A stretch of DNA of 63,925 nt, filler included. It is 5 parts of 5 records of this genome, joined end to end, with 100 filler letters (N's around TTAATTAATTAA, not from the genome) between each part and the next. Parts side by side here need not be neighbours in the genome. Positions count along the whole stretch, not along the records: positions 28,133 to 52,055 come from SRR31147125_43379; 4 more parts are not named here. One strand, written 5' to 3'. Positions 28,133 through 53,477 of the stretch are shown in pieces. Below the pieces are notes generated by a model, which saw only the letters and a program-made list of their open reading frames with translations, made no database searches and was not told where the DNA came from. Each line of letters begins with the position of its first letter. The first letter of the stretch is position 1. The position numbers were made by a program, and so were the translations under genes.

Positions 28133-31100
28133 TGGTGCCAGAAGGGTTGCTGGGGCAACTGGACTTGCGTGAGCAGTCACAGATTCCGCGTCAGGAAGAT
28201 TAAGAAGAGTTGCAACATCATTGTCACACTCGACACTCTCGATAGAACGGCGAAGAGTAATCGAAGGCCCCTCTACATTAATGATGACTCCCTTGGTCGT
28301 TGCAGCGGGTACATCAATTTGGATACGCCCGGGAGTGGCCACGAGGTCCGCCGACAGGTTGAAGACATACACATCGAGCGGGTTCCCAAGGTCGGCAACG
28401 CCCAGCACCAGCACCAACGGATCTGTTGAATCGATACGAACATTGGAAGATATCAATTCCGTCGACTTGACAGAAAGATCCTCCAGACGCCTTCGTGTGA
28501 AATCAAAGTCAACAGGCTCCCCGCATAGCACCATTCCGGTATGAAGATTGACAGCACTCCCCACGTTGCAATGCTCGAAGCTGCAATCACCACACACAAT
28601 ATCACCACCGCGTTTGCTTTCACCACTCAGGAACTGGAGCTCGCCCTTCACAACAAGATCATTTCGTCTCCAGTCCTCCTGCACAGTGGGCAGTCCCTCT
28701 GCAATATTCAAACCTTCCTCGAATGTTGCATCTCCTCCAACGGCCATGCGTCCTGCAATCTGACGCAAGCCGTTTACATTCTCAAAGAAGAAGGCATTGA
28801 AAGGCGCAGCATCCCCAAAGTCGAATAATTGTGAGGGAGAGAAGTCAGTAACCAGCGTCGCACAGTGGTCGTCCGTATAGGCAGGGGTACATTGACACTC
28901 ACCGAGGGTCGTACAGACACCATGACCATTGCACGTTTCTGTCGACTCACAGAAGATATCACAGTGCTTCCCATACCAGTGGAGACCACACTGACATCCG
29001 CCAAGCCCGGTGCACTGACCATGACCCGAGCATGTTGTGTCGGCCCTGCAAAAAACGGCACAATCCTCACCATAATAATCGGTTTCACAGGTGCAGGACT
29101 CCATGTCGGTGATCTCTTCACACTCGCGACAATTCTCAGCGCCAATCTGCCAATCGTAACAAACGCTAGATGTTTCTGTGTTTCCTGAGTACAACATGCA
29201 AGATTGAGTGGTATGACACCAGCCACACGAGGGACGCAGGGTGCAATTGTAGCAGTCGTGGAATCCGTAACAGTCAATGTTGCACACGTACTGACCCGGC
29301 AGTGAACGCCAGTCCTCATCGCATATGCAGGTTCCGTTATCGCACATTCCGTGAAGGATGTCTATGCACGCCGTCACGGTACCACCCAGCACGACCGGGT
29401 TCCAGAAGAAGTCGGCTGTGCTCGCATCAATACACGGGGCATCATCCGTGAGCTGTGTGATCACACCGGGTTCCGTTATGGAGAATCGTTGTGTGATGAC
29501 GAAGAGACCGTCAACAATGATGTCGCCACCAGTGCTATCAATTGAATTGATACGGCTTGTAGTGTTCATGGCCATAGCAGCGGGATCCGCCATGATCGTG
29601 AACAGCCCTTCTTCCATTTCGTATGTATTGCACGGTGCGTTGTCCACAACAGCACCAGGCCACATGTTAACAGTAGAGTTCGAGTACTGCACAATGCGTG
29701 AGCGTTCACCGCACGAGAGGTCAAGTGTTCCGTAGAGGTCGACAACGCCTCCGTGCCAATGTACACTGCCCAATCCATCGATGGTACCGTTTATGCTATG
29801 CTCGCCTTCACGGATGATCAACGCTGCTCCCGCTCCCAGTGTTAGAGTGCTGCTGGGCCCAGTGGTTCCGTTCCCGAAGACCTCCAGTACACAGTTGTCT
29901 TCAACGATCAGGTGCCCATTATTCTCCCACGACGGCATCGTAAGTGCATGACTCTCCCCAACGATCATGGTTCCGTCATTGATGAGGACTCCCGAACGAG
30001 TGCCACCATCCTCGAAGGAGAGGAAGTCGCCTCCTGCATTGCGGATTGTAAACGTACCATTATCGGCGTTCTGCAGTACGGTATTGTGACACAGAAGGAG
30101 ATCCCCGTCGTTTATCCACTGCAAATCTCCGTGATTCATGAGCGTCCATCCACAGATGGCACACTCCTCCCCAGAGATCACCAAAGTTGCGTCGTGATTC
30201 ACAGTGATGGTCCCTGAAGTCTCGGCACTGCCCCAAACTCCACCGCTATAGTCTGCCTCGCCCGTGATAACCACATCACCGGTACCCACGAGCAGACCAT
30301 CGGTAGCACTGAAGGAGTGCACGTTGAGTCGTCCGTCCACTGTCACGATGCTGCTATTGCCACCCAAGTAGAAGGTATCTTGTACGCCAACATAGCCAGA
30401 AGTGGAAACCGAAAGCAAACCACCCTGGAAATCAAGATGATCACAGTTGAGAGTTCCGCCCGACGTAACCACGGACAGAGGTGTTGTGGTTTGGAGGTCG
30501 TGAACAGCAGCATGGCCACCCTGCTCCACGATGAGTGTGCCTTGGGTAATCTCAACGGATTGAGAGAAGAGTACGTCTCCGGAAGAAGAGGGCACACGAA
30601 GAGTACCACCGTCGACGATCTCCACGTGGGCAACATCACACTCCACTTGATACGCGTTCAGAACTCCTCCCTCATCAATGAGAACAAGACCGGCACCATT
30701 GATTACAGTATCGCCTTCAAGATCCACGGAGCCCTTCACCTCCACAACGGCATCAGAGGTGGTCAGAGCAATGCTTGCATCACTGAAATGTGTGCTTTGT
30801 TCTCCGTCCAACACCATCGTGCCGGCTACACGAGTTTCTCCCCCTTGGAAGACAAAATCGTCATCGTTCGGGGCAATCACCAGACCTGCGGATGAGGTAA
30901 CCTCCAAGAGACCAGTGCTCACTCCCGAATGCAGCAAGGTAACCGTGGTCCCATTCAACACATTGAGCACTCCTGCATTGGTGATAGAAATGGGAAGATC
31001 CATTTCACCCCCCGCCTCGTTGGCGTCAACAAATTGAAGGGTTCCTTCATTCAAGAAGGTTGCATCCTCGTCCATTACGACAAGAGAAGATGGAGATGCT

Positions 31101-34100
31101 GCGTCGCCCACGATCACGTCGAACAAGGCACCAGGACGATTGATTATGTGACAACCAATTCCACACTCCATCTCACCGCTTTCCCATGTCATGCTACCTG
31201 CATTCTCGAGAGTCCACTCCAGTGGCATAGCAGTGACACCGCCTTCTTCCCCGGAGGTGATGGATGCAGTAGCCTCCGGGCTGATAAAGAGGTGCCCACC
31301 TCCCAGACCCGGGAGAGAGACGATTCGAGCCGTACGTACGAAACTAGCACGTCCATTGTTCACGTTATAGAGACCAGGACCTGCCAAGGAACCCGTCCAC
31401 AAGCTGTCCTCAGAGGATGAAAGGAAGAGCTTCCCACCATAATGGCCACTTCGGTTTCGGGTTCCGTTGTGATCGGTCCCGTGGAAACGTGGGTGTTCGG
31501 ACACACAATGCTCATCCGTGCGTCCTCTCGAAGTGTGATCGCGGAAACGGAAATGTCTTCTCCTCCGCTCGTACTACAGAAGGATAGCTCACTTCCCGAT
31601 TCAACAATCACACCAGCACCACCGGAAATGACAGCTGGATCGGTGATATTCATGTGTGATCCGCTACACAGAGTCACAGAGGCATTACTGGCAGGGTCCA
31701 GTGCAATGGTCCCGGAAACCGTGACGCTGGTATGATTGAAGATGAAGTCACCAGCCCCGGTTAGGATCGAAGTGGGATCGAGGATTACGTGATCCTCAGT
31801 GTCTTCCGATGCAAATGTCACAGAACTTCCACGGGCCGTCTCAAGAGTACCATTCAATATCACGTCCGATGTTAGCGTCAGGTCACCCTCCACCACGGAA
31901 ACGATTCCACCTCCCGTGTTCACAAACGGTACGTCGATGGAAACGCTTGTTCCATTGACCACATAAATCCTACCCGAGTTAAAAATGCCTCCGCTTCCCG
32001 TCATCTGAACAGGAGTCTCGCTTGTTATTGTTAGACGTCCTGTGGGCGTCACAATCACTCTTCCACCAAGAACGATATCCGCATCCGTCCAAGTGACATC
32101 ACCGTCGATAATCAGATCAGACAAGAGATAGAGTTTCCTTTCCTCCTCCTCATCCTCATCGTCCCCGCCGCCAATCGTTACTGTACCATTCGTGGTTACA
32201 TTAATACTTGTCACAGACACATTTCCGCCCGTCCATGTCATGTTTCCGGTCACAACAACCTCACCCGGTCCCGTGATCTCTCCACCCGTCAGAGTATACT
32301 CTCCGCCCGTTGTTAGCGTTGAATTGGTGTCCCATGTTCCACCGCCTTGCTCCACTGTTGATGTGGCGTTCACAGGTCCATCCTGTGTCACATTTGCTCC
32401 CGGATGAACAACTACGGGTACGTCGATCGATGTTGGTATATCGGACGAGGGGAATATCAGACCACCCCGTATGTCGATCTCTCCTCCCTCATCCACGAAT
32501 GCGGTTCCAGGAATTACGGTGATCTCACCACTCGGATCTATTGTCCACGGGCCTGTGATGGGTTGATCCTTCGGTCCAACAATAATAGGGCTTGCTATGA
32601 TCATCCCACCGTCTCCTTCAATCAATCCTCGATTGATAAGCGTGCCGCCACACGTATTGAGGAAGGCACCCTCTTCTACGGTAATCACTCCAATATTCTC
32701 TCTTCCGTTCAGCAAGCACACGACCCCACTGAAGATGTGGAAGAAGTCATAATTTGTCAGTGCCCACGGGGTAAAGATCCCCGTTCCGTGGTATTCAAGG
32801 GTACCCTCGTTCTCAAACTCGCGCATTCCACTTCCAGTCACTTCCATCGTTTTGTTGTCCCATCCGACAATATCCATCAAACTTCCGGGCAGAACGCGGA
32901 TTGTGCACGATGTTCCGTCATCGCATGTCATATCGCCCTGAAGCCATTTCAAGGAGGTAGCCACAGTTAAGGTCGTTCCTCCCATTACCAGAGGAGATGT
33001 AGTCGGTCCACTAATCACGGAATCTGTACCGCCACCAATCCATAGAGTGCTAGCAAGACCAAGGTGGCCGCTGTGGATCCACTCAAACTGAGAGGTGACG
33101 TTCACACGGCCCGTTCCGGTTATGTCGCCACCTGTCAGTGCCAAATGGCCTACAAGCACATCTCCAACAAAGGTACACGTCCCGGTTTCACTGATGGCCA
33201 AACTGGGCACGTCATATGCTCGAGAAGACGAAGAAAACAGTACCGTACCACCACCACTCACAGCCAGAGTCTGGGATGGTGCAATCCAGGTACCGTCCTC
33301 TGCCGTTAGCAGACCAGATGTTACCCGGAAGGACCCTTCGTGCCTGAATACGCTGCTTGTCGTTACAGATGCACCACAAACGGTCACATTACCAGATCCG
33401 TCGAATGTCGTTGTCACGGTACACATTCCACTTGCAAACTCGATGCCACTGGAGGGGTCCATCAGCCGAACGTTTCCGGCAAGTACACACGATGACGATG
33501 GTTCCAATACGAGAAGTCCTGAATTGCATTGAAGAACCCCTGTGGAGAAGACGGATGCCGAAAGACGCACAGAGGACTGATTCAATTGAATTAGTCCTGT
33601 GTTGCGAAGATCAACGGGCAGAATGAACGGCTCTGCACCACCACCACCAGATCGGTCAACAAATACAAGACTTCCTTCGTTGAGTATCGAGGAATCCGAG
33701 TCCGTAGAAAGCAGCTCGTATGTGTCCAAGGAGATCTCGAAAGTAGCATTCAAATGGTTGATGAAGTTGCATCCCGTTCCGCATTCGACTCCCACATTCT
33801 CCCACTTCACATCACCCTCATTGTCAAGGGTCCATTCAAGCAAGATTGGATCCGTACGAGTCGCTGATATGTCAAGAATCACATGAGCACCGTCCTGCAC
33901 ACTGAGGCGGCCACCCGCAAGCAGACTTGAACCTGCTCTCAGAATCCCCGTGTCTGCTACTACAAGAGTACCTTCTCCTTCCAGAGCACCGCTGTGATCA
34001 AGAAGGGTGCTAACGACCATACTCGATGCACTGGAGATGGAAACCGTAGAACCCGTGTCGGTTGTTAGAGTGTGTATTTCCACTTGTGTGCCGATGCACA

Positions 34101-37100
34101 TGGCTTGCACGCTTCCTGTATCCCTCACCGTAATGTAAGACACGGGAATGGAGCCAGAAGACGAGCACAGTTGAAGTACGCTGTTCGATTCGACCGTGAT
34201 ACCCTGCCCGCCAAGGATCGCACCCGTTCCCGTTACACTCATGAGACAGCTGTTCTTGAGTAGAACACTTCCCGCATCGGGTGTAAGGAACTCAAATTTG
34301 CCGTGAAGCGTCGCCGAGGCCGTATCAAAGATATATTGCCCCACACCACGTGCCACCGCAGAGGCTTCAAACACCGCTGTGTTGGTGAATGTTAGGACAT
34401 CCGTTCCGTCTGTAGTCTCCATACGGCCGACTGAGGTCACAGGGGCCGAGAACAGCAGCGATCCATGGGTGACAGTTATGTTTCCGTCGTTCACCATGAC
34501 CGCACCTATCGATACTGAAGACGTACAGCTATCGCCGCAGTCTGCAGCAACAAGGAACGATCCCCTATTGGTGAAGCATTGGAGATTTTCCATCGCCACA
34601 ACACTTCCGCTCACAGAAAGAAGTCCACCCATCTCGTTCACAAGGACGGACGTCCCTGTACCAGAGAGTGTTCCCGATAGCCATGTCCACATACCAAAGT
34701 TATGAAGCGAGGGTCCATACAAGGCCCTCATCGAAGAATCACTCAGAAGTAGCTGTGCATCACTTCCGATCCTCAGTTGCCCCGTTGTATCGCCTTCCAC
34801 AGCCGTTTCCAACCATTCAACCGTTCCTGCTTCTACACGGAGCGAAGCTTCACCCTGCAGATGGAGTGTACCATTCTCCAGTCGGGCCTCCCCTGTTGTG
34901 CGAAGTACCGAGTCCTTCACTGCCACGATGCCTGTCCCGTTGACGACAAGTTCTTCAGTTACTTGCAGTTCGCCGTATACTTCGACAGTTCCCCCAGAAA
35001 CTTGAAGCGAGTCAACAGCATAGACGTGACTTCCCGGCCGAACGAAGATGACCTTTTCATAAACGATAATCGGCGCACCTGGGTTGATGATCATTGCAGG
35101 AGGATAGAAGATAAGGGTACAGTACACCTCATAAGGTGCAGACAGTGCCAGAACATTTCGAATTTCAAGAACACCCGAAATACATCGGCCACCTGACATG
35201 CCGAGATAGCCACCCTTATTCTCAAAGGTACTACCGCACATGTCAAATTCTCCCGCGGCACCAACAATGATATTTCCCCAGTTCACTCCTCCTCCGGCAA
35301 CACAGAAGCGTCCCAGAGTTACGTACAATGTTCCATTGTTCACGAATCTAGCCCATGTCACCAATACACCTATATCTTCTTGCTGTGAATCCAGGGGGAG
35401 AATCGTGGATGTCAAGTTACCCATGTTGATGAGCGTTCCCAAGTAACTTTCTTCTCCCAGATGGGGGCTTGTACCATTGATGAACAGATCTCCTTCGTTC
35501 ACAAGTGAGCACGAGCGGCAGAGGACGTCCACCGTCTCCCAGTATCCAATACACGAAGGTTCCAGGATGATCTGGAAATCATCCGTAAGCTCAACCGGAG
35601 TTTCGTGGGTACCGGCTACAAGGAGCGACTCAGAGACGTGCAGAACACCCGATCGAAGGATACTGTCGCTCAACACACGAGCATTCTCCGTATAGACGAT
35701 TCCGCCCTCAAGGGTACCTCCTTCCTGGAAAAGTGTAGGCACGTCGAGAGTTACTGCCTCAGCAATCGCTATGGATCCACCTGTCTGGACCAGATCTGCC
35801 ATAGAAAGGGGAGCTTGTACAATTACCGAGCCACCCTCAACGTGCAAATTCTCGATCTCATGAAAACCGGCCAGTGGAGGGGGCGACGCAAAGGTGAGCG
35901 ATCCATTCTCTGCCACTGTTACGAGATCAGAAGCGAGATGGGCTGTTTCGGACACAATCAAGGATCCGCATTCCCGAACGTCAACATCTCCCGACAGTTC
36001 ACCTTGGATCGTTACGGTGCCCGAGCCCGCTACAGACACAGGACCTCCTCCACTCACCGGGACCGTGACGATGCAGGCACTATCGGCAGCACCCTGGAAT
36101 ACAACTGCCCCCTCGGGCCCCACAACAACTTCCCCACCCAACGAACATTGAGCCATGTCGATAACGAGAGTGCCTCTCTCCACAATCAAGCTGCCAGAAT
36201 TGATAAGATCAGCACCCTGAAGAACCACTTGCGTCGAAGGGTCGGCCATGTTGATCAACAGGCTGCCGTTATTCTCCAAGGTACCTTGTCCCAGAAGGGC
36301 GACATCTTGTGTGCCCTCAACGGCCAGAATACCCTGGTTCACGATCGTCGTTCCGCTTGTGAGACTCATATCACCAGAGGTCCATTCGTTGGCGGATCCA
36401 ACAGCTGTTGTAAGTGTTGTGCCGTCCATATTGAATGCACCATGGATTTCCAGTGTCGAAACTGCAATGTCCACGGGCCCCGACACACTCCCTTCGGCTA
36501 CTGTCATCGTATCCGATACAATCAGGCTTCCGTTACCGTATACAGATCCACCCGATCCCAATGCAATGTAGGGAGTTGTTAGTGAGTCACGGAAGTTGAG
36601 TGTTCCGCTTCCTTCAATAGAAAGCTCACTCGAGACCCCCAGTCCGCTGAATGCCCTCACGGTTCCATCAGGAACTTGAAGAGAATCAATAGTGTAGGCG
36701 TGTTGTTCGTCCGTCGCTGTGAACTTCACCTCGCTGTGTACAATAAGAGGTGCGCCCGGGTTCGTAACTGTTGCAGGAGGGTAGAAAACGAGCGAACAAT
36801 AGGCATCGAAGGGCTCGACAAGCGTGAGAGGGCCATAGATCTCAAGAGTACCAGACGAGCACTCTCCGAGCGGGTCACGGGTGTAGTTGGAACCTGCCCC
36901 AAACGTGAATGTACTTCCACAATTGTCAAACGTTCCTTCAGCACCGACTTCAATCAAGCCCGTGCTCGTCCCTCCTCCAGCAGCACAGAATACTCCCCGA
37001 TTCACAAGGAGTGATCCCCGATTGGTGAGTGTTGCCCAGGTTGTGAACACCGATGTTGAATCTTTCATTGTCGTATGCAGTGTTCCCCTGTTCAGAAGGG

Positions 37101-40100
37101 TCCCGGATGCAATATCAGCCCCAAGTGTATGACTGTCATCCACAATTCGTAGTGTCCCGAAGTTCTCAACACTACACTGCGTGCACACAACATCAGACGC
37201 CGCCCAACTGCCATTCCCACCCGAAACAAGTTCAAGAATAAATGAATCCAGCGTCAAGGAGGTGTTGGATGCTACGACAAGTTCCGACAGAACACGCAAA
37301 CGACCCCCTGGGCCAAGAAGTCCACCGTGCAAGGTAGCTCGATCCGCAGTCACCACACCACTACCAGAACGACTGCCGCCTTCGTGGAGCAGAACTCCGA
37401 TATCTACAGCAGCGGTGTTGATGGCTATGTGTCCGTCCTCGTGTGTCAGAGTATCCAGATGTACGGGACCCTCCATGATCACCATTCCAGCCGAATCCAA
37501 AACAGAGAGGTCTCGTACATAGTAGTGTTCTGTACTCCCAGGTGTGAAGGTTACAGTACCATCCAGGACAGTGAGTGTAGCAGTAACAGGGGAACCTTCT
37601 TCAAGGTCCAGAGAACCCGATTCCTTCACATCAAGCGAACCATCCTCTGTGAGAGTGACAGGGCTTGCATGAAGGAGGACGGAACCCGTTGAGACGTGAA
37701 CAGAACCACTACCTGTCACAGAACTATTGTTCACAAGGACACTCTGTCCACTCATTACGGACAGACAGCCGCCCGAGGCAATATGGATCGTTGTTGACTG
37801 GAACTGACTCGACGATACATTTGCCCCCGCTGCCCCTTGAAGGGTGAGACAACCACTCGAATCAATGGTAACGTCGCCATCATTCACAGAGAAGGATGTC
37901 TCAAAGGTGGTTGGGGTGGAGACAACAACACGGCCCGAGGGATTCGTCACAATCTGCCCAAGAGAACCCGCTGCGCTGGACATTGAAGCATTCGCAGTTG
38001 TAGGTGCAGCAACAAACACACTCCCAGATGTCGTTCGAAGAATACATGAGGCACAATCAATGCTTGAGCGTGTCCAGGAAACCTCGTGATCATTCAGAAC
38101 AGTCATTCCGCGCCACAAGAGAGTCTCCGAATCAGATCCGGCGATCGTCATGTGGGCGTTCTCGTCTATTTCAATGGTTCCTGTACTGGAGGTACTCGCA
38201 CCCAGCGCCCCACCACTCCACACAGCGGAAGATGTCACCACTACAAGACCTCCCTCCGGAGATGTCAACGTTCCACCAGAAAGTGAGTAGTCCGCGGTTG
38301 TCAGTGTCCCACTTGCAATTAGCATACCGTCAGTCTGTTCGATGGCGGCTGTGACATTGAGACTCTTCCCCGATACAACTTCGACAAGGGCACCCGAGCC
38401 ACTCACGGACAGAAGATCCATAGAACTATCCGAAATGCTCAAGTGAGAACTGTCTGAAACCTCCACCGCTGTGTCCGGATTCGTGATCGTCGTGTCCAAA
38501 AGGGTCACTGTACTCATTCCCTCAAAGTGCACCGATCCGGTGCCTTCAACACTCACATGACATCCGCCGTCACTCAGCAGAGAAGATGACCCTGTCACAG
38601 AAAGCAAACCACCAGATTGCACGTGAAGTGTGGTTGCATTCGAGAGATGAGAGCTTCCCGATGCCAGAGCAAGAGAGCCATCTGGGCCAACGTCACACAG
38701 GCCACCACCCGTCATGACAAGCCCGCGTTCAGCAATCGTCAGCTCGCCTTCAACTACAAGAGTTCCTGCGTCATTCACAGTGGAAACGCCCAGGGTTACA
38801 GAACTCGAGGATTCTACAGTCATGCTAGCACGATTCGTCAGCATACCGTCAAGGCCCGTTAAGGAAACAGCAGAGGGTGATGATACAACAATACTACCCG
38901 CCTCCTCATTCACAATACGACCACCCAACGTACAAGCATGATCACCACCTTCCCAGTTCCAGATTCCACCTGAGCCAATCGATATCTCGCCTCCGTTGGT
39001 GAGGACGTGTGTACTGTTGTCTCCCCCACCGTCCTCGCTCCGCCATACACCCGACACACTGAGCGTGGTTGCGTCAATTGTGCCACCAAGCCAAGAAAAT
39101 TCCCCGGCAATCGTCACATGACCCGCGCCGCTCAATTCCAATCCAGACATTTTGTACAAAGATCCAGGTGGAATTGTCAAATCACCGAGGCTTTCCACTT
39201 GAATACGCCCCTGTCCACTCTGATCGAGTCGTTGGGTAACAGAGAGATGAGCACCCGTCTCCACGGTTACATCGCCACCCGAAACGTCCAGTTCGTCGAT
39301 CTCGTACACCCGTGCAGAATCTGTCGCAGTGGGTGATGTGTGGAAAACAACGGAACCACCATAGGCAACCACAATTGGAGCGCCAACGTTCTCAACACTC
39401 GCATTGGGATAGAGGTGAAGTTCACCCGCAACCGTCAACGGACCGTCCAGCTGCAAGACGTCGTCGATGATGAGGACAGCGCCTTCTCGAATGGTCCTGT
39501 TTCCTCCTCCCTCGGTTACACCTGACTCGTCCATGCGGAAGACACCACCACACCAACCGAATTCACCTCCGGGAGAGACACGAATCATCCCAAGGTTTAC
39601 TCCTCCTCCACTTGCGCACACGGAACCAGCCTCAACTTGTGTCTCCCCACCGGCATCGTTTGTGAACCAGGATTCAATGGTGCTATTCTCGTTTCCGGAG
39701 ATAAAGGTCAACTGGCCCCTGTTGAGAAGATGTCCGCCCGCAGTCTCGTTTACAGCGGGCTCCGTTTCGTTCTGCAGCCGTACCGATCCATCAACAACGA
39801 TCTCCGCACCAGCTTTGTTAAGAACAGTGCATCCATTCGTGCACATGACATCACCGCTATGCCACTCAACAGTCTGCTGGTTCACAATCGTGAACTCAGA
39901 CACAACGCGGGAGTCGCTCAGTGTTTCGGACTGGATTGTCAGGGTACCCTCATTCACAAGAGAGCCTGGGCCTTCAAAGGTTCCACCTGTCCACAAGCAC
40001 GACTGTTCTGCAATGATTCTTCCAGCACCCGTCATGACTCCACTTCCAGACATGTGAACGTCTTGTGTCTGTACTGCACCATCAAGATGGGTGATTCCAC

Positions 40101-43100
40101 CGCTTTGGCTCAAAGAGGCGGCCACAGAGACATTTCCTAGAATATGAAGAGCTCCTCCCTCAATGCTGAGCTTGGTAACAGGGAACGTGTATGTATCCAA
40201 TGCAGGGAATGTCACTTCACCGTCCGCAACAGTGAGTGGTTGATCCGTGGCAATCACCGACAAGGCTTCGAACGTCATATGTCCCCCACGGACAAGTGTG
40301 CCCTTTTCTTGTTCAAAGACGGCGGCGTGCGATGTGACAAGCCCACGGCTTTCAATGGCTCCACCGCCGTATACGTGTGCCGTTACATTACAATCAGCAG
40401 AACTGTCGAATACGAGCGTTGCTTCACTGTCAAGAACCACAGTTCCGCCCAGGGAACACTGTCCATTCAACCGAAGAATACCCCGGTGAATATGCAAGGT
40501 TCCGTGATTGATAAGTTCAGGTTCAAGAGTCACTTCATCATCGGCTGTCATTCCGGTGTATTCCAGCAGCCCATCATTGATGAATACGCCTGCACCATTC
40601 TGACCCTTGAACAAGGTCCGAGGAGTGTCACCACCCGATCCACTTATGTCGAAGGTGCCACTGTTCTGAACAACACAATCCAGGCCGCATGTCCACGAAC
40701 CAGATGTCCACGAAGATGTTCCGTCAAGTTGAAGAGTCGTGCCGTATACTTCACTCCCACTGTCATCGCTTTGGATAAGGAGGTCCTTCTCCACAACGAT
40801 ACGGGTGTTTCCATCACCATTGAAAATCCCGGCATACCACTTCAAGGACTCGTGTACAGTCATTTCTCGTGATCCCATAACGGAACCGTACGGGGCGGCC
40901 ATTGTGAAGTCATCGGTGAAGATATGATCATTCAGAGACAGTTTCCCACCTTGTTGAATGATAGTTGTCACTTCGGCTGGATCATTGACATTGACGTCCT
41001 CACATACAAGGAGCAAGGATGCCATGAAAATCTGCGGATCTCGTTTCGAAGGACGTTCGAGATTCAGCGTCCCGCACGAGACATCCAGGGGCGATTCCCG
41101 ATTGAGTATGGTGGCATTGGTGAGCAAGTTGAGTACAGCCCCTTCCTGGAGCACGAATTCACCTCCTGTGAGGTTTCCAAGCCCCGCAAAGTCGACCACA
41201 TCACCAAAGATTCCCACGGTTCCGAGGCCCATAAGCCGGGCATCCTTTGTGAATTCGTAGATACCCTCGTGGATCTTCAATCCTCCATCCACGGAAACCC
41301 AAATGGTTCCCGTAACACGGCCAGAGGCGTGCAAATTGACATCTCCGGCATCGATTTGGAGGAATCCACGGTTCACGAAGAAGGTATCTATCGTAGTGGA
41401 ACCAATCCCTCGGTCGAGCATGTATCCCTGGTTCTCGAAGCGACTCTCGCCGTCGTCCTCTCCTGTCATCATAAGCGAGGACCCGGTTATTTCGAAGCTT
41501 GAACCTGCAGGGTTGGTAAGAACAGCACCATCGCTCAGTACGAGTTCTCCAGACGCCCATGTGGTTGTGTGTCCCAGGTGAATTTGCACAGCTGACACGG
41601 GTAGTTCGTGTATGCCGCCACTGATAACAAGATCGGATGCGGGTCCGGTGGTAAAGGTGCCATTCCCGTGCAAGGACGTCTCCGTCCACAGAATGTCCTG
41701 ATTCGCGACAACGGTTCCCGTGACATCCACAAGACCGCCAAACATGTTGTAGGTTTCATCAACGAGCAGACTCGAGGGCACATGGATGGTGCTGCTTCCT
41801 GATTGTTCCAGTTTCTCCGTGATTCGGGTCGGGGTGCGGACATAGACCTCCCCACAAAGAACCTTCAAGTTATCGATCAACACTTCGTCACTCACACCCT
41901 CCTCTGCCAAGAAGGTCACTGTGCCACAATCTACAACAATGGGAGAATTCAAATTGGACACAGATGTTTCAGGTACGAGGGTCAGGGTTGCCATGTCCGC
42001 CACGCGCATTCCATCCGCTGGTTGATTTGTGAGACTTATCATACCAGAACTCCTCAACTCCCCTGAATCCAAAAGGATAAACCCTTCAGAGGCCAGTGTA
42101 CAATCTGAACCCAATTCGTGTACTCCACCAGAAAAGGTCAGTTGGGTACCAGAAGAAACCGTCGTTGTGCAACTGCCCGCGAATGAGCTGGATGAACCAA
42201 GAACAAGATCTCCACTACTGCTGGCAAGATCAACGGAATTTGTTGTCTCAAAGCGAACATGTACAGCAAGCGGTGCCGCTACTTCCATGTGTCCGTTGTT
42301 CACGAGTGTACCAACGGGGGATGACTCAGCCGCTCCATTGAGGAGGGCCACACTCGTTCCGGACACGTCCATGATATTCTCATTCACCACAGAACATTCA
42401 CTGGAACACGAAATATCGCCAGACAGCCATGCCATCTCTCCTTCATTTCTAATGGACCAGCCATCAAGTGTAAGCACAGCAGGTGCGGGCGCATCAATTG
42501 TGATTGTTCCCGTTGTCTGTGTTTCCAGTGTTCCGCTCCCGTAGATGGCACCATCACTCCACTCAAAGGCTCCCGTCGTCATCACGAACGCAGAGGAGCC
42601 CTGAAGCACTCCACCCGTGAAGTCATAGAGTGTTGCAACACTTGTCTCTGCATCCACTCTCAATTGGCCACCCGACTGAATAATCTCATTTGCGGCTACA
42701 GGTCCATAAATATTCACTTCGCCACACGGAATCTCGATTCGCGATACAGGATACACCCAATCCGAGGTCGCTTCGAAGTTGACCGTTCCACACAAGACCT
42801 TGATGGTAGCATTCGCGAGAGAGGCCTCGGGACAGAATGTCACACTCCCCACGACGAGGAAATCATCATGAATTGTCCCACAAATTCTCACATTTGGTCC
42901 CTCCGGAATCACTACTTTACCGTAGTTCACAATTTGTGTATTCGGCCCGAGCTCAAAGTCTCCATCGCAGAAGTCCAGAGTTCCATACTCCCCAATAAGG
43001 AAGAGACTGTCACTGTAGGCTCCACCGGCCAGACAGATTCGTCCAACATCCGCCCACAAGATGGCAGGATCACCCGTGTTATTGAGGAATAGATAGATCG

Positions 43101-46100
43101 TTAGGCTTGCCTCAGAGGAAGGACCTGTGTACCGGAATGTGCCTGGGTTGGTAAGTAGTCTACTGTCGCAGCCGTCTGCGTGCAGCAGGTAGATATCAGA
43201 CGACGATGCAGGCATCACCGTGACATTTCCGTGGTTTGTTAGGGTACAGGCCTCGATATCCCCTTCTGTCCACAGAACACTACCGTACACAGCAAGTTCC
43301 CACTCAATGTGTTTCAGTTGCGGATCTTCAATGGTGAAAGTTGTTCCCTCATCCACCGTGACAACACCCGGACCAACCAGTCGAGACCCTGTCCACGTCT
43401 GATCGCTCTTGACATTGAGGGCACCCGTTCCCCTGATCTCACCGCTCTCCAGGGATCCGTTCTGCAGGAGAGAGACGGAGCCGCTGATATCCAGTGTGCC
43501 GTCGTACAAGGCCAGCAGTGAGGTGATTCGTACATCTCCGCGAACGATAACCGAGCTTGTTGCTTCCTCGACGAGCAAGGCAGCCACATTCGTGAATGTG
43601 TCGTTGTCGGGAGGAAGGGCCGCCTCGAAACTAACTTCCCCATCCTGAACACGAAGCGGCCGAGATGCATCACGGAACTCCACACCCGATTCGACGACTA
43701 CGTGGCTCGCAAGCGTAACCGCAACGAATCCATCTGTACCCAGGACCGTTGCGCCGGATTTCATCACAACGGTCGAACCTTCAAACAGGACAATTCCCTC
43801 TCCCATTGCCTGGGCTGTTCCAGCAAACTCTGCTGTGTGATCACGGAAACGTGCAAGACCACCCGCTTCTGGAGCCAGGATACCACGGATGGTAAGAGGA
43901 GCTTCAAGAATAAGCTCTCCCGGTGTAACAACCAACGTTCCTGTCTCAATCACACTTGTGGGTGCGTACACATGTGTAGTCGTGCCGGCAAACGTGCGAA
44001 CTTCACCTCCAATCTCGAACAGAACTGCACTCTCGTCACTCCACACAAGATCAAGGCCATCTACAGATCCGATTTCCCATATACTTCCTAGATCTTGTTG
44101 AATTGTACCTGTACCACCAAGGGCAATGCTTCCCTCTGTCCAGGTTGCTTGTGATGTTTCGCTGAGGTGAAGAAGGCGTTGATGGATGGATTTCTCGGCC
44201 GAACTGTTGAAGGACACCACACCGTGGGCCTCAGTCGACCCAGTGCCGTCCATGATTCCGCCACTCCACACAGTTTCCCCGAGAATCTTCAACAGACCAG
44301 GTCCATCCAGACGTCCCCCTTGCTGACTATACAAGGCCGACGTCAAAACATGCATCCGCTCGTTGAGAGTCAGTACCGCTGTTTGAACCATCTCGTACGA
44401 CCCCACAACATCCAGGCATTCGTTCACAACAACATCACCGCCACTGTGCACAACCACGTCGAGGGTAACACACGCGGCAGATGTACTTGTGAGGGTGACG
44501 ATCGGTGCCTCGGTCACAACAACCAAGCTGCCACGCGTATCGACTCCAGATTGCAGGGACACCGTACCCGCATCCATCAGAATCGTGCTACTGGAGATGC
44601 GAGTTCCTTGTAGTTCTGCATTCGCACCGTGAAAGTGAACCAAACCTGTACCCATGATCTCGGCGGTGGCCCTGATCACGTGAGACCCTTCCCAGAAACG
44701 GATCGTTCCGTTTGTTTCGGTGAGGATCGGTCCACCAAGCGACCCCGTGCCCGCAAGGGCAAGAATGCTGTTCGCAGCTCGCACAATGCCATCGGAATTC
44801 ACATGAACACGAATGATGCTGGTATCACCCGTATTCTTGTTGAGCTCGCCATCAACTCGAAGCTCACAGGAACTGCTGCCCAGCTCTTGGATCATGCTCG
44901 CACTTCCTTTCACTTCCATGGTACCGGAACTTGTGATCATCACGGTAGAATCGTCGAATAGACGCAGATCACCATCGTCCTGCCACACACACGTCCCTTC
45001 AACAGCAACATTGTGCACTCCTATGTTCTTGGTAGCACTTCCCTGCAAGAATACGTCGTGTTGGAGACGGAACGTTCCTTCTCCGGCCCAGGTCCCCGCT
45101 TCGAATGTTCCAAGAGTACGCGAAATCGCTTCTTGATCTGCGGCAACTGTCACGCTTCCACCAGTCTGGGAGAACGATGTATTGAATATTGCTGTTGCCT
45201 CCACAGAGAAGTCACCCCCGCGAAGCGCCGTCTGATCGAGGACAGATGTATCCAAAACGCGCACCAATCCCCCTTCTTGTACCAGAATGGGGATGTGGTA
45301 TTCGTCCACTACATCTGTGGGAGTAAGGTGAAGTTCACCTCCCAGAACATGGACGGGAGACAGTTCACTCAGAACAGACACGTAGTTCGAGAAGCGCACA
45401 GCACGGGTTGAATTGGCTGCAACGCTTGCCACAGTAATGGATCCGCCCGTCAGGGCGAATGTTGCTTCCACATCTGCCTCGGCATCGGTGAAGAGAACGG
45501 TTCCCTCGCCCACAGTCGTAAGAGTGTGCGTCAAGTTGTGTGGGCCCTCCATAAACTCAAGCTGCGATCCAAGCTCAAGGATAATGGAATTGTCGAACAA
45601 ACTGGACGTAGCAAGATCCAACTCACGATTCGTCTCCAGAGTAAGCTTTCCGTGATCCTCCCACTGTGCAAAGACTGTTGTCACATTACCGGATGTTTTC
45701 TTCACTTCACCCGCCACAGTGTTGTCGAAGAGACAACTCTCCCCACCGAGAAGAGAGTTCCCCCCTGTAACCGTCAGAAGATCACGATTCTCGATCCGTC
45801 CGGCATGACATTCAATGTTTCCATCCTCCCATGTTGTAGGACACAGGAAAATTATACCGCGATCTTCAATCGCCTTCACGCCGGGGGAAGCTAGTGTGAG
45901 AGCTGAGAAGAAGGGTACCCCAAATTCAACGTCCAATCCAGGACCTGCAATCACTCCCTGTCTCCAATCAAATGTACCGTCTGTACCGAGTTGGATCGAT
46001 CCGGCTCCATGGATCAGACCGCCGTCGAACAGATCACCGCCCTTGTCCACAAGACCCCGGGTGATGAGACCACCCTCAACAGTCATGATCGCACGTGTCT

Positions 46101-49100
46101 CCCCTCCATTCCCCCCACCTAACAGATCAAAGCATGCTCGTACCGTGAGGGTAGCGCAGTCCGCAACCACAACCTCGCCTTCTTGGATTGTCAAGTAGGG
46201 CCACAAGTAGTCTACGGGTCTGGTAACGTCACAATCCGTGAATTGGACAGTTCCTCCGTCCTCTACAGAAAGGTGCGGGAGTGCATCACGTCCCATTGTT
46301 ATGGAATAGTCAGCCCACCCAGCCGGGTTGGCTGTTTCCATCATCGTCACAACGGCATCATTGCTCACGATAACGGTTGTCCCCTTTTTGAAGAGAGCAC
46401 TACTTGTGATCAGGCCACCACTTAGAATCAGATTTCCGGCTTTGTTGTCATCAAAGGCAGTGGGTCCAAAGACCGCTCCGTCGGCCAGGTCGAAGAACGT
46501 GTCGCCCGTTCCCGTAAGTTCCAGAGTCGAGCCCTTTCGTATTTCAACAGGATATCCACCCAACGGGCACGTACTCTGGGCACGGCAATACGTCCCAAAC
46601 ATACCACCGCTCCCACGAAGTGTCATGTGCCCACCGTCTCCTTCCGTTCCCGACTGCTCGGTTCCAATGTACAACTTACCCAGTTGGTGGAAACGACCAC
46701 CAAACTGGACGTGGGCATCGCCGACCTTTGTGAGCTCTCCACGATTAGCAAAGACACTCGCATCGGATTGTGTCAGACCTGTCGTCTCGAAACGCATACG
46801 ATCTCCGGTGGAGTTGCTGGTTCCATTGATCTTGAACTTGGCACCCAAATCAATATGAATTCCGGCACCGTTGTGACCCCACACGGTTCCATCATCCCAG
46901 TGACCTCGGGCACCTGCGTGAAGTCTGATAGAATAGCGATCAAAGTGTTTCTCGTCGGGATCCGTGATGCAGAAGTAGTCGAATACATCAACAGTACCCA
47001 AACCGAATTTGTCGGACAACAAGCCAGAATGCCAGCAGAACGTGCCTGTTGCATTGATGATGCCGGGACCCGTAAGATTGCCTCCCTGAACCAAGAATTC
47101 ACCGGGTGCATTGATGCCACCACGCGCCGACACGTGAAGTTCTCCGCCATCGACATGGAGTGTGTTCGAAATAACGATAGGCGCATCGACAACCATCCGT
47201 CCCTGACCGAACCGATCGAGTACAATGGCAGGTATCTCAATTCCTGCTTGTTCGTAGACAACTTCGCCACCCGTGATGGTCTGTGGGATGGCAACATTAG
47301 TAACCCTCATGCCAGGCTTGAACTTGGCCTTCATGCCCGACATCTTCCACTCTGCCTCGCCTTCCAGATCCACACCACAGCCAACGTCTCCATTTCCACC
47401 CTCAAAGTTCAGGCCACCCTTGCCCCGGAGCCATCCACTCGATCCAAAGAAGAAGGATCCAGAGAAGAAGCTTGCCGAAGCCTTACAGCCCGCGGGATCA
47501 ATAGAGCACTTGCTTTGCATCTGAGGGAGATTATGGGCCGTGGTAAGGTTGCCATTAACAACACCGCCTCGTGAAAACTGGAATTTGCCAAAGTTGAGTT
47601 TGAATTCGGGCTTCCCCTCGGACATTGTGAAGAATGCTCCAAACTTTGTATCCTTCAATGAGGAAGTCAAAAGGGTACCACCATTTCGGAACTCAGGCGG
47701 AGCTCTCCCCTCATCGGGATCGTAGAATTGTCCACCACACATGGTGCCGTCGTCTGCCAGTTCACTAATATCCATGTCAAACTCACCACCGTTCTCAAAT
47801 ACACATGTCACCCCCTGGAAATCACCGGCGACAATATCGCCACCAGTCCAATGGACGGCCGATGTCGAATACTTCACCTGGAATGTGCGACCCATACAAT
47901 GCTTGTCCCGACAGGTTGTAACATTCATGTGACTCTCCACGGCTGTTGTGCCCGGACCCACATGATAGCCACCTGCCCATGTAAACAAATCCATAACGGT
48001 CAGGTCTCCTGGCCCCTGGACCGTGCCGGAGGAATGGTCAAAGGACTGTTCCATGACAACATCGCCGTTGATGCTGAGCGTTCCGGCGTTCATAATGTAA
48101 TCACCCTTCACAAGCAGCGTGACACCCGACCCGACATCAATCAACCCGTCCCCTTCAAACATTCTCGTTTGAATAACATTTCCAACCGACACATCATACA
48201 AGAAGGGCATGGACTGGAGGTAGAGAGAGCCAATAACATCCATTTCTGTAGTGGGATTGCTGGGATCGGTAACACCGGCACCGAAACTCAGTCGCAGTAC
48301 ACTGTTATAATCAATACGGATGCGTGGTACATCAAACTTACTGGCAAGATTAACCACAGCATGTCCTGGATCCCCATTAATGAAATCGTGTACGGGATCG
48401 TCAATGTACCATAGGGGATCCACGAAATACTCGCCGCGACAGTACACAGATCCTGAGCCTGTAATAACAGATCCCGTCCGGAGGGTATGCTCTCCAGAAC
48501 GGAAATCAAGCATGGAATCTTCCAGGAGCGTGAATGTGCCCTCACTACTTCCGCCGTTAAGCAGGCGCAGACGGCCAGCAATTCGCGTTTCGCCGTTGTT
48601 GTTGAAACGTACCCAGAACTGAATGTCATCGTATATGCTTGTCACGGACATGATCAGGGTTCCTTCATTGACAAAGGTGGCTTGGTCGGATGCAGGGGTC
48701 TGGAACGGAGCTTGCAGGAACTGTACGCCCCGAACCATCGTCATTGTTCTATGGCTTGTCATCACAGCTGCGTTCTGACCCGTAATGGTATCTCCAGGCG
48801 TGAGCCAGTCCACGTCTCCGTGAAGATTAAGTGCTCGGCTGTCTAAAACCTTGTCCGTACTACCAGGAACAATGAAAAGATCCCCATACACATCCGTTGT
48901 TCCCGATCCGCCCATGACTCCGCCGCTCCATGTGAAGTTGCCATTGACAATCAGCTGCCCCGATCCTTGTATCTCTCCACCCGTGAAAACGAAACAACCG
49001 TCCACTGTCAGTTTTCCATCAATAACAAGGTTGCCTGCATCCATCAGGTAGCAGTGGGGAGCCGGAATTTCCACTTCTCCACTCACAATGACACTACTGG

Positions 49101-52053
49101 GAACGGTACACGAACCACGAGGAACCTGATCCCGGGAAGAGGGAGGAAGAGCCATTCGTGTTTGTGGAACATTCAATCCGACCTGATTCACACCTGGAAC
49201 CACAAAAATGTAGTTGAACAGATTGAATGTAACGGTTGCACCACAGTACACCGTGATGGGGTACATGTCGTCGCTAAAGGTATTGGTTGGCTCGAAATTC
49301 AACTCAGCGGGGCCAACTTGGAAGGCATCTTCCATGGTAAGGTCATAGGTTCCGCGAGACCTGGTCCGAGCTCCCGTGAAGGCAACCGTTCCTCCGCCAA
49401 GAATCTGTACAGACTCGCGAAGAGTGTGGACTACGTCCGTTCCACCAAAGTCCAGGAACCCTGTGCCACTCGGCTCCACAATGAATGTCCCGAAACTCAG
49501 CCCACCCCCTTCCAGGGCAATGTGCCCCCCAAGACTCTCAAACGTTCCATCATTCTCCAGAGATGCGGTGACTGTAAATGTGTAGTCAGCACTGGGCGGC
49601 ACCAAAGATCGAGTCAGGGTGGCTCCACTGTCAATACGCAAGATGGATCGACGTCCGGCAACGGGGCTGTAAAGGAAGGCAACATCCTTTCCAGAAACCG
49701 CAACGTCCAAATGACCTCGGTCACGGAGCATGGAGCCCCGTGACGCCATGATACTTCCGTCTGTCCATGTGGCAACACACTGTGGCTCCACTTCAATTGT
49801 AACGCCATCATCGAGCAGCTTGTTGTATTCTTGCTCGATGGACAGTTCTCTGCTAACACTCAGCACTCCGCCACCGGAAATTTCGCCAGCACACCACCGA
49901 ACATGGCTGACATGCACAATTCCATCCAGACGGAAGACAGTGTCCTGTCCCATCGCGGCCTCGCAGCCGATTTCGAGTTGGCTCAGTGTCATTGCGAAAC
50001 AATTCAATAATACAGTTGCGCCCTTGAAAGCGAACTGTGTGAGGTTGGATCGGATGTCAGCTTCTCGCTTGAAATCGACTGTACCTCCCAGAAGGAAGAT
50101 GGTGCCTTCAATGTCAATTGTCGACTGAATGTACGAGTACGTTGGTGTGGCTGTATCGGCAATGTTAAACTCAAGACGTCCTATTCCCTCCAGAACCGAT
50201 GTCTCTGTTAGGAAATGAATCCCATCACGAATATCAAGAACCCCGTCTGGACCCAGGTACATGCGTCCGCCGTGTGTACCGCCTCCCGTAAGCTGCAAGG
50301 TTCCCGATGTGACAGAAAGCACGGAGTCGGATGTACTTTCCAGAACACCTGCCAGGATGGATTCACCGGCACTGGCCTTCACAAGCGTCCCTGAATTGCT
50401 AAGATCTGCATTGAAGAGGGTTGCCCCCTCGCCCACCTCGAACCGTCCCGTGCTCACAAACTTCGCTCCGTTGGTTCCGGTGATTTCTCCACCCGTCCAC
50501 TGGGTTTCATTCATGATAACCTGTCGCTGGGACAAGGCCACAGGGCCATGCAGCACAGCGACATCCTCCACATTCAGGATTCCAAACCCAGACATCGATC
50601 CACCGGTCCACGTCAAACTCGTCAGAGAGACCAGGCCCGTTCCCTTCAACTCACCCTTCTCGAGCACCAGTGTGTTCACGGTAGGATTGTAGCACTGTGC
50701 ATCAATGACACCACCAGATCCATCGCTCGAAAGCTTCAAATGAGCCGAGGACGGAATGGCCTCTGACATGTACAACGTTCCTGCCCAGATATCAAGCGGC
50801 TCGCTCAGATCATACACCATACCGTCCACAGCCATCTCACCACCCGACAACCGAACAGTTCCATCACCCGACAGCGTGGAGGTACCACGGAGCACCACAA
50901 CACCATTGGCGAAATTGAGAATAGACGGAGCAGCAACACTGAAAACAGCGTCCTCACTTTCCGTTCCCTGTTCCAGACGAAGTTCTCCATATCCAGATGC
51001 CACATTCACGGCACTGTTTGCATGGTTCTCGATACGCCACGAAAGGCTCACGGACCGTGCGGATTCGCCCGTTAAGGGTGGCAAGAAGTCAATGGAACCC
51101 TTGTTAATGAGGCGTGGCTTGCGAACAAGGTTGCTCATATCATCGTGGCTCGCATCAATCTTGGCCCCACGGAAGTCAATGATAAATTGGGATGAACTTT
51201 CGCTCAATTCGAGAACAGGCGCATTCAAGAGATCAATCGGACCCGATGTCCATGTCATGACTCCCCGGTTGATAAGGGTCCGATCACTCCATTGCCGTCT
51301 GCCGGCCAGATTGCGAATCTCAGCATCCGTGAGAATTCGGTCATAAACAGACATATCATCGATCATCCCCCGCCACGGAGTCTGGGCATACTTCACATCT
51401 CGTGAACCGTCCGCGTTGTCACTGGCATACAGGTATCCTCCGCCCAGTGTTGTGACGAACAAATCAGATTCATGACCCTCAGTATCAAGGCGTTGGATTG
51501 AGCCCTTCAGAGGGACAGTGTTCTTGTACTTGCCATCGATATAGAAGGCTGTGGAACTTCCCGATGCCACAGCAGCTAGATGATGCCAACCACCGTCCGC
51601 GGGAAGCGACACACCTGAGGAATGGAAAGTACAGTCGTGCACACGTCTGTTCGCGGGGAAGCTCCGATGCACGCAGTTCTGCACAACAAGACGCCCGCTG
51701 CTGTCCAGAGCCACTGCGGAAACGAAGCGATAGATTGGGGCAATCTCGTTACTAACTTTGCCTCCTACTACGATTTCGTATCGCTCCGAGTTGTCCACCC
51801 ACAATCCACCGAACAGAATGTTCTTGACAGAAGAATCACTGGAATAGGGATAGGGATATGCAGTGGGAGTTGTGGGAAGTCCACCAGTCGGCACAAAGAT
51901 CCATGCTGCGACCGAATAGGACGACTCAAAAGCAAAGTAGGCATTCACCTCGAGCAGCATCTTGGCTTCGGACGAGGCGTCCAGGGACCATCCACACAAA
52001 GCATCGGGATTGAAGGCGGGTGTGCCAACAACAGGCGACTCAATCCAATTCGG
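28133..52053 (-). CDS. Giant (>=7,970 aa) secreted or surface protein: LamG-like domain, very long beta-solenoid repeat region, EGF/PSI Cys-rich modules and choice-of-anchor A domain. Open at both contig ends, 1-nt frameshift near 31440
   Basis: ORF 31360-51999 extends in frame to 52053 (PNWIESPVVGTPAFNPDAL). ORF 28085-31504 continues the same repeat pattern. LamG: WHHLAAV..FYIDGK..GMIDDMSVYDRILT. PSI: CYNCTLRPSCGWC. EGF: CSGHGQC..CQC..WYGKHC. Choice-of-anchor A: FNAFFF..GRMAVGGDA..VIINVEG. Confidence 0.85.
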
Positions 52054-52055
52054 AC

Positions 52056-52596: not shown

Positions 52597-52632
52597 TTTC
52601 AGTTTGAGACGAAATGCCTTTTGTCGATATTG

Positions 52633-52666
52633 AAAGAACCTGCTTTTTTTAGCAGGTTCTTTTTTT
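52633..52666 (+). terminator. Intrinsic terminator (possibly bidirectional)
   Basis: AAAGAACCTGCT-N6-AGCAGGTTCTTTTTTT between convergent genes. Confidence 0.8.
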
Positions 52667-52695
52667 GTGGTTTGTATGATTTTACCTATGTTGGG

Positions 52696-53398: not shown

Positions 53399-53422
53399 AG
53401 TATATTTCTGCAGTTATAACGA

Positions 53423-53449
53423 AGGCCGAGCATAGAGTATGCTCGACCT
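53423..53449 (-). terminator. Hairpin downstream of HU/IHF gene
   Basis: AGGCCGAGCATA-GAG-TATGCTCGACCT, with one G-U pair on the minus-strand RNA. Confidence 0.45.
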
Positions 53450-53477
53450 GTATAAATTTATATTTAAATGATTTTGC

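Follow-up and report, generated by a model that had tools for sequence, protein, structure and literature searches.

The window analysed here, a stretch of 63,925 nucleotides, consists of five contigs joined end to end, and the third of these (positions 28133-52055; 23,923 nt, GC content 0.525) is occupied over its whole length by a single open reading frame (ORF). This contig is most likely a genuine piece of a single gene, whose product would be an extracellular fibre protein with 7,974 or more amino acids, or about 0.8 MDa by arithmetic. Read from its N-terminal side, the fragment comprises a Laminin_G_3 domain, a long array of divergent repeat modules, a Cys-rich stretch of EGF-like and PSI-like units and a choice-of-anchor A domain (Table 1). 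The same order of parts had been proposed in an initial annotation of the DNA, and it is borne out by Pfam and NCBIfam scans run on six tiles spanning the whole frame.

Table 1. Features of the giant gene fragment, in window coordinates, with the observations on which each is based.
Feature	Position	Strand	Basis
One ORF, at least 7,974 codons	28133..52055	-	Overlapping open frames joined by one extra base
Laminin_G_3 (concanavalin-like lectin) domain	51304..51996	-	Pfam; BLASTP to the LamG_3 copies of P0003, E 2e-05
About 25 tandem divergent beta-helix modules of ~280 aa	29378..51297	-	Repeats, alignment, fold models, bacterial homologues
Frame break	between 31422 and 31423	-	Extra G in a single Logan contig (depth of 2.6)
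First EGF-like Cys-rich unit (HGMCDNGTCICDEDW...)	29276..29350	-	Sequence; aligns to P0003 EGF units; no Pfam stretch of its own
PSI-like eight-Cys unit with CGWC	29129..29275	-	PF01437 below Pfam cut-off
Teneurin/tenascin-type EGF and DSL-like repeats	28853..29116	-	Pfam; solved structures; P0003
Choice-of-anchor A / pAdhesive_15 domain	28133..28819	-	Pfam, TIGR04215; cut by contig end

The ORF is assembled from two overlapping minus-strand frames. The first begins open at 52055, where the contig ends, and meets a stop at 31360-31362, the second is open between 31573 and the opposite contig end (28133), and reading through from one to the other gives 6,877 + 1 + 1,096 = 7,974 codons with neither a start nor a stop. 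The initial annotation had described a single contig-spanning frame with one shift at about 31440, and without visible start, stop or intron. The frame analysis agrees on each of these points, placing the break about 20 nt away at 31422/31423 and leaving some 24 kb of frame uninterrupted by any intron. The encoded protein is dominated by Gly (12.8 %), Thr (9.7 %), Ser (9.5 %) and Val (9.5 %). It has an acidic composition with very little Lys (D+E 11.8 %, K+R 4.3 %, K 1.2 %), and contains 147 Cys residues and 76 NxS/T sequons, against 58.8 expected.

The nature of the frame break was addressed by comparing the first 20 kb of the contig with the Logan contigs of the sole listed public DNA run (X1). 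No RNA run was listed, which carries no information on expression. All 45 Logan records are at least 99 % alike to the contig, with 0 joints and 0 loose ends, and differ from it at only two places, a G>A substitution at 36653 and an additional G behind plus-strand position 31422. When the frames are counted through, a single base added between 31423 and 31422 passes the first frame into the second. Right after the break the second frame reads '...SSSEDSLWTGSLAGPG', the first Trp motif of the module that follows, at a distance of 279 aa from the preceding one, matching the module period. From the extra base in X1 and the module spacing across the break we read the break as a base lost in the assembly of the window, probably an assembly error of CC for CCC on the coding strand rather than a biological frameshift. 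The G>A difference lies 58 nt from the end of a Logan contig and could be either a strain variant or an error.

The same comparison bears on whether the contig might be an assembly chimera, or the gene a dead, frameshifted one, both of which we regard as very unlikely. Coverage in X1 is thin, with a depth of 0-3.4 per bin and 27 of 30 bins covered (3 uncovered), and the Logan records, 239-642 nt in length for those listed, give no independent long-range order, so that some room is left for such readings. They are, however, hard to reconcile with 45 of 45 matching records that lack joints or loose ends, with a single frame and a module period that persist throughout, and with a sole break that is mended by the other assembly. 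No direct DNA repeat longer than 66 nt (73 % identity) is present in the contig and the protein tiles are only 23-53 % identical to one another, making repeat collapse or repeat-mediated chimerism unlikely; there is no long DNA repeat available for mis-joining. Thus the collapsed or chimeric assembly that the initial annotation had considered as a possible refutation is not seen in the 45 records or in the repeat content.

The module array consists of one partial first copy followed by 24 delimited copies and makes up about 90 % of the protein. Each module has two conserved Trp motifs (WxGG...G.G and W..GD), which return every ~280 aa, together with N.G.L ladders. The repeats are old and divergent, as seen in the 23-53 % identity at which protein tiles match one another by BLAST and in an alignment of 24 modules (alignment A1), where identity to the reference copy is 18-23 % and a single Trp is invariant. 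No Pfam or NCBIfam model matches the module, and the four middle tiles gave nothing above chance in these scans. The repeats are nevertheless recognised by a hidden Markov model (HMM) built from twelve repeats of the bacterial protein P0020 (P numbers denote proteins retrieved in our searches), which gives 32 domain rows on the giant protein, 23 of them at an independent E-value of 1e-4 or below and the best at 83 bits. In many modules of the array, two Cys residues also follow closely on the second conserved Trp (W..GD..C...GC.V.N). This pair is missing from the bacterial relatives read, that of P0157 being placed differently, and may represent a lineage-specific disulfide staple.

Structure prediction gives a consistent picture of the module fold. 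The AlphaFold model of the module at residues 3438-3720, with alignment A1 as input, has a predicted local distance difference test score (pLDDT) of 94.6 and a predicted template modelling score (pTM) of 0.91, and is all-beta, with 33 short strands in 283 residues. A Foldseek search of this model against the PDB returned nothing at E ≤ 1e-3, only weak beta-helix rows, while VIA-align against 48,161 chains returned right-handed parallel beta-helices throughout. The top match is the HMW1 secretion domain (2odl; Z 19.1, root mean square deviation (rmsd) 4.0, 257 of 283 residues aligned), followed by the phage Andhra tail protein (Z 18.4), EtpA (8cpk; 17.6), UpaB (15.7) and Fap2 (9qe7; 15.4), with about 40 more beta-helix chains at Z > 13. 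These matches place the modelled module among the right-handed parallel beta-helices, or pectate-lyase-like solenoids. A model of two consecutive modules, for which the input was an alignment of 12 non-overlapping module pairs (alignment A6), has a pLDDT of 87.3 and a pTM of 0.79. In this model the strands continue through the junction, and the structural matches span it, among them Vag8 (7akv, residues 161-528; rmsd 3.8) and VacA p55 (residues 125-481). Adjacent modules are therefore predicted to stack into one continuous solenoid. The modelling of repeat segments that the initial annotation had proposed thus yields a beta-helix for the module and the module pair alike.

To place the protein among known sequences, its last 1,102 residues were compared exhaustively by HMMER with 1.84 billion representatives, giving 272 proteins at E ≤ 1e-3, of which 34 reach ≤ 1e-10 and 2 reach ≤ 1e-30. 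Among the 150 of these 272 matches that were listed, 8 are to modules, about 8 to choice-of-anchor A and the rest to EGF units. Here and below, proteins are called bacteria-like or eukaryote-like from a reading of their termini and domains. The eight module proteins (P0020, P0022, P0031, P0062, P0070, P0100, P0140 and P0151; ~30 % identity) are bacterial in their other parts, which include Big_9, cadherin-like and tandem-95 repeats and, in P0100, a type IX secretion system (T9SS) tail, Por_Secre_tail; none has a Pfam or NCBIfam match over its modules. The N-termini of P0020, P0062, P0153 and P0155 carry a motif that we take to be the Planctomycete-type signal, while P0154 ends in a PEP-CTERM-like tail and P0157 has SLH. 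The profile made from alignment A1 found 26 matches among proteins of 631-2,000 aa (best E 6.9e-102), including 7 with PATR, 5 with an autotransporter barrel and ESPR, 3 with RHS and one each with SLH, a dockerin and a T9SS tail, with 12 lacking any Pfam domain. Applied to the 176 retrieved proteins, the same profile matches 34 at E ≤ 1e-3, P0020 at 1,292 bits, and since P0020-like proteins and the giant protein find one another reciprocally by profile they belong to one module family.

Modules were also found in at least 6 of 301 sampled genomes of Planctomycetota (the phylum of genome G001) and at least 4 of 301 of Myxococcota (the phylum of G002), these counts being lower bounds with no more than 8 candidates scored per genome. 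The module-bearing open frames in these genomes reach 6,021 aa, and one of 3,152 aa in genome G145 consists almost solely of modules. The 6,021-aa ORF (L058:521-18586, contig C5 of the Planctomycetota genome G290) has modules followed by cadherin, Ig-like and Golvesin_C domains, RHS repeats and PT-HINT. Found as they are with autotransporter, RHS, SLH, T9SS and PEP-CTERM parts, the modules appear to be a widely used bacterial stalk element.

Some of these relatives raise the question of whether the rod, instead of being an adhesin in the first place, serves as a stalk that delivers a polymorphic toxin or some other effector, with its active end in a missing part of the gene. Modules occupy the N-terminal part of the RHS proteins P0164, P0171 and P0176, the G290 protein joins them with cadherin, RHS and PT-HINT, and both ends of our gene are missing. 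We consider this arrangement improbable. The visible C-terminal part is made of EGF units and choice-of-anchor A, the latter usually preceding a sorting signal in bacteria, and in none of the six tiles does a domain of RHS, HINT or toxin type reach E ≤ 0.1.

No protein resembling the fragment as a whole was recovered. The 34 module-bearing proteins and the 142 with EGF or choice-of-anchor A, which together make up the 176 retrieved, do not overlap, and none of those retrieved combines modules with EGF or choice-of-anchor A; nor was any full-length homologue of the same architecture, which the initial annotation had named as a possible counter-observation, present among them. A search for giant relatives of residues 1-1500 gave 0 matches at E ≤ 1e-3 among 755 candidates of 3,793-12,072 aa, and a word-index search, for which the query was residues 60-700 of the terminal 1,102 aa, gave 0 among 7,999 scored candidates. 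Scans of metagenome contigs with the C-terminal 456 aa and with alignment A4 produced 98 and 219 pattern stretches, respectively, of which 0 were confirmed, so that they supplied neither a longer copy of the gene nor neighbouring genes. A scan of genome contigs with P0020 gave 20 pattern stretches, again with 0 confirmed, and the best score in the ESM Atlas was 0.78, with no usable match.

The two terminal domains are assigned by curated models. The Laminin_G_3 domain (PF13385), near the N-terminal end of the fragment, scores 43 bits against a cut-off of 27.6 (E 6.8e-11); the Pfam alignment covers 51316-51621 and profile positions 71-150 of 151, the first half of the domain having been placed by eye. 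At the other end, the choice-of-anchor A domain, a beta-solenoid, is recognised both by pAdhesive_15 (PF20597; 84.2 bits against 23.8, E 1.8e-23) and by the choice_anch_A model TIGR04215 (79.9 bits against 29, E 2.4e-22), the latter covering profile positions 3-221 of 255 up to the contig end. This domain scores best against the bacteria-like P0043 (57.5 bits) and P0081 (52.0 bits), although their lead over the eukaryote-like P0117 amounts to only a few bits. The six tiles, which lack both ends of the protein, show no two-partner secretion (TPS) domain, PATR (PF12951) or autotransporter barrel (PF03797) at E ≤ 0.1. Bacterial choice-of-anchor A proteins carry a sorting signal of the LPXTG, PEP-CTERM or T9SS kind at their end (10.1101/2023.03.06.531300, PMC6541295). 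According to the same reports, the domain, although of bacterial origin, is also present in the diatom Trailins, gained by gene transfer from bacteria, and in the Acanthamoeba Jonah lectins, which bind cellulose.

The Cys-rich stretch between modules and choice-of-anchor A includes EGF units of teneurin/tenascin type. EGF_Teneurin (PF23106) is found in three stretches at 40.7 bits against a cut-off of 24.3, DSL (PF01414) is borderline at 24.4 bits against 24.2, and EGF_TEN falls short at 27.3 bits against 65. Searched against solved structures, the EGF part matches Delta-like (2e-06) and teneurin (1e-03) chains, and Jagged chains also. The eight Cys residues and CGWC of the adjoining unit presumably fit the PSI pattern. 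PF01437 itself scores 20.8 bits against a cut-off of 23.1 (E 5e-4), however, and there is no PSI chain among the 24 solved-structure matches (E ≤ 1) to the Cys-rich part; given the score below cut-off we call the unit PSI-like only. Of the two profile assignments made initially for the C-terminal region, choice-of-anchor A therefore stands and PSI falls just short. The best match to the EGF region is P0003 (E 1.1e-43, 41 % identity), a protein of 3,374 aa that combines long EGF arrays of teneurin type with four copies of Laminin_G_3, with Big_13 and with an OmpL47-type and a PKD domain. It looks prokaryotic and has a hydrophobic anchor at either terminus.

Relatives of the EGF stretch are also encoded in bacterial genomes. 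With each prokaryote species represented by a single genome, a pattern scan located them at 34 bacterial loci with 30-57 % identity, of which 22 belong to Myxococcota lineages, 5 to 'Deltaproteobacteria', 3 to Planctomycetota, 2 to Acidobacteriota and 2 to Proteobacteria, and EGF_Teneurin is over its cut-off in all 13 of the 13 ORFs scanned from these loci. Modules were not found in the five genomes that hold loci L001-L004 and L007. A further cluster of eukaryote-type Cys-rich modules in Myxococcota is seen at L010:4740-6800, in a metagenome-assembled genome of Myxococcaceae, where one ORF has ephrin-receptor-like repeats, NCD3G, Dicty_CTDC and EGF_Teneurin.

These data allow the owner of the gene to be considered. 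Since about 90 % of the protein consists of modules whose only relatives look bacterial, a bacterium is a likelier owner than a protist, and overall we hold bacterial ownership with good, though not full, confidence. The gene itself points the same way, being intron-free over 24 kb, with CGN making up 86 % of Arg codons and CpG not depleted (0.89; GC at third codon positions (GC3) is 0.52), and both EGF arrays and giant module ORFs occur in Planctomycetota and Myxococcota. The contrast of bacterial-type and eukaryote-type parts drawn in the initial annotation is softened by the EGF arrays at 34 bacterial loci and the sub-threshold PSI match, and its description of choice-of-anchor A as mostly bacterial by the diatom and Acanthamoeba occurrences.

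Several observations weigh against a bacterial fibre adhesin. Most of the top EGF-region matches resemble type I membrane proteins of eukaryotes (a visual judgement of the termini in 21 proteins), some choice-of-anchor A matches look eukaryotic as well (P0055, P0065, P0117), and PF01437 is rare in the bacteria searched, where it hit 2 of the 301 genomes from Myxococcota and 0 of 14 controls. EGF or choice-of-anchor A occurs in 0 of the 34 retrieved module-bearing proteins and, conversely, no module lies within 5 kb of EGF at the 34 bacterial loci (860 ORFs). No search gave a close relative, the best module identity being ~30 %. The signal peptide, anchor, promoter and neighbouring gene are all missing from the contig, which ends inside the gene, adhesion is read from domain types only, and the extra base that mends the frame comes from one low-depth contig, possibly of the same sample.

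The eukaryote-like matches among these points are what would be expected had an intron-poor protist or other microbial eukaryote joined its native PSI and EGF units to beta-helix modules and choice-of-anchor A acquired from bacteria, an explanation that we nevertheless think unlikely. It would gain from P0055, which shares the order of EGF followed by choice-of-anchor A and has a signal peptide and a hydrophobic C-terminal tail, and from the scarcity of PF01437 in bacteria, the documented choice-of-anchor A proteins of diatoms and Acanthamoeba, and the numerous Cys residues and surplus of sequons in the giant protein. Huge proteins are, moreover, abundant in Fornicata and Apicomplexa according to a survey (PMC11573180). 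In its specific form, in which the eukaryote obtained module and choice-of-anchor A by transfer, amplified the module some 25-fold and fused its own PSI and EGF units to the product, the scenario is unlikely to much the same degree, if slightly more so. What speaks against a protist is the bulk of the protein, with 34 of 34 retrieved module relatives looking bacterial, along with the intron-free, CGN-rich and CpG-undepleted gene, the existence of EGF arrays in bacteria and a PSI match that is sub-threshold. The protist owner suggested initially is for these reasons not supported.

An archaeal origin, for example in DPANN or a halophile, has to be considered because an N-terminal Laminin_G_3 occurs in nearly all huge proteins of archaea and is their commonest architecture, in the same source (PMC11573180). 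The acidic, Lys-poor composition and the four LamG_3 domains and prokaryotic-type N- and C-terminal hydrophobic anchors of P0003 would also agree with it. Against this, the module relatives bear bacterial secretion parts, and no archaeal module relative was seen, archaeal genomes not having been searched directly. To our knowledge, Cys-rich EGF units are not typical of archaea. We therefore judge an archaeal gene highly improbable. A halophile as the principal explanation was rejected, given that D+E amounts to only 11.8 % and that beta-helix adhesins are generally poor in charged residues.

Least probable of all, and hardly credible, is a giant virus as the source of the contig. Teneurin-type EGF motifs do occur on nine IMG/VR contigs of 30-357 kb (L045-L053; EGF units 32-43 % identical, one contig labelled GVMAG), but module relatives in IMG/VR amounted to 71 pattern matches with 0 confirmed, and there is nothing else viral on the contig. 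The giant-virus owner entertained in the initial annotation has no support beyond these motifs.

Taken together, the fragment is best read as part of a giant fibre adhesin of an uncultured bacterium, a reading to which, with the adhesin role included, we assign a probability of about 0.6. Both the fold models and the set of domains support the initial suggestion that this is a rod-shaped adhesin of very great length. The protein would be a secreted, disulfide-stabilised fibre of ~0.8 MDa in which the ~25 modules would form a stiff rod of roughly 0.1-0.15 µm, assuming 25 modules with ~11 coils each (33 strands in 283 aa) and 4.8 Å per coil, values that come to some 0.13 µm. The rod would separate the lectin-type LamG domain at one end from an adhesive end of EGF units and choice-of-anchor A at the other, and would hold binding domains away from the cell. 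Since bacterial choice-of-anchor A precedes a sorting signal, the missing C-terminus probably carries such an anchor. By this analogy the C-terminus is probably the cell-anchored end, attached through an LPXTG, PEP-CTERM or T9SS signal, in which case the LamG end would be distal. Adhesion to polysaccharide, surfaces or other cells is the likely job of such a protein.

The remainder of the window has little to say on these questions. Its five contigs (1-5833, 5934-28032, 28133-52055, 52156-58486 and 58587-63925) have GC contents of 0.52, 0.58, 0.53, 0.44 and 0.32, in that order, and are joined by N runs around an all-frame stop linker, 'ttaattaattaa'. On the other four contigs, the larger ORFs prove to be unremarkable bacterial genes, among them those for LpxI, a CNNM/CorC transporter, an Fe-ADH, an AraC-type response regulator and a mannitol dehydrogenase. 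The contig at 5934-28032 further encodes FtsH, the zinc ribbon of an IS1595-type transposase, PPDK, a MacB/FtsX-type permease, a sigma-54 response regulator adjoining a PAS histidine kinase, and a hybrid PAS kinase, with GC3 values of 0.68-0.80 compared to 0.52 in the giant gene. On the contig with GC 0.44, a Hanks-type Ser/Thr kinase (PF00069, E 9.5e-57) and an aconitase 2 with an AcnB-type N-terminus lie at 54076-58340. Unlinked to the giant gene and different in composition, these contigs are uninformative on its owner. The possible contact with sulfate reducers of the same sample that had been proposed is unsupported, the adjoining contigs being unlinked and ranging in GC from 0.32 to 0.58.

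The fragment is a very large and well-modelled addition to the giant beta-helical surface fibres, a known class in which it stands out chiefly by size and by its mix of domains. Its ~280-aa module is widespread although uncurated, forming the stalk of autotransporters and RHS toxins and of proteins anchored through SLH, T9SS or PEP-CTERM, and a curated model of it would annotate many giants now called 'hypothetical'. The gene is incomplete and comes from a low-abundance organism, and its biological role is drawn from inference only. Were the owner a protist after all, this would be a striking case of domain transfer, a chimeric fibre of nearly 8,000 aa without counterpart among the proteins retrieved.

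In size the protein falls in the class of more than 5,000 aa to which the giant genes of Omnitrophota, Planctomycetota and Elusimicrobiota belong; these are likewise metagenomic and presumed extracellular (10.1101/2023.11.21.568195, PMC11573180), and no homology to them is claimed. In fold it resembles the type V and TPS fibre adhesins HMW1, EtpA, FhaB-like proteins, Fap2, Ag43 and UpaB, which have the same right-handed beta-helix rod (Z 15-19 for the one- and two-module models). Some sequence relatives of the module carry an autotransporter barrel and ESPR, whereas the C-terminal part of the giant protein, with EGF and choice-of-anchor A, does not fit a C-terminal barrel. The choice-of-anchor A proteins of bacteria, the Trailins and the Jonah lectins are, in the reports cited above, adhesive or cellulose-binding surface proteins, but they are far smaller and have no beta-helix module array. 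The EGF arrays of teneurin, tenascin and Delta have the same C...TCSGHG.C...G.C.C unit, and P0003 likewise pairs EGF with LamG_3; the giant protein differs in having only ~3-4 units, embedded in a beta-helix giant. At the bacterial EGF loci examined, EGF is paired with RCC1, collagen or ephrin-receptor-like domains and not with modules. The nearest known counterparts are the giant bacterial WxGG-module proteins (P0020, of 3,461 aa, P0153, and the proteins of G145 and G290), whose tandem modules of ~250-290 aa are homologous to those described here and similar in period, with neither set matching a Pfam or NCBIfam model. Relative to these proteins, at a module identity of ~20-35 %, the giant gene has ~25 copies, is described as more than twice as long, and is acidic and Cys-containing, and it alone flanks its modules with LamG_3 on one side and EGF, PSI-like and choice-of-anchor A units on the other (0 of 34 relatives).

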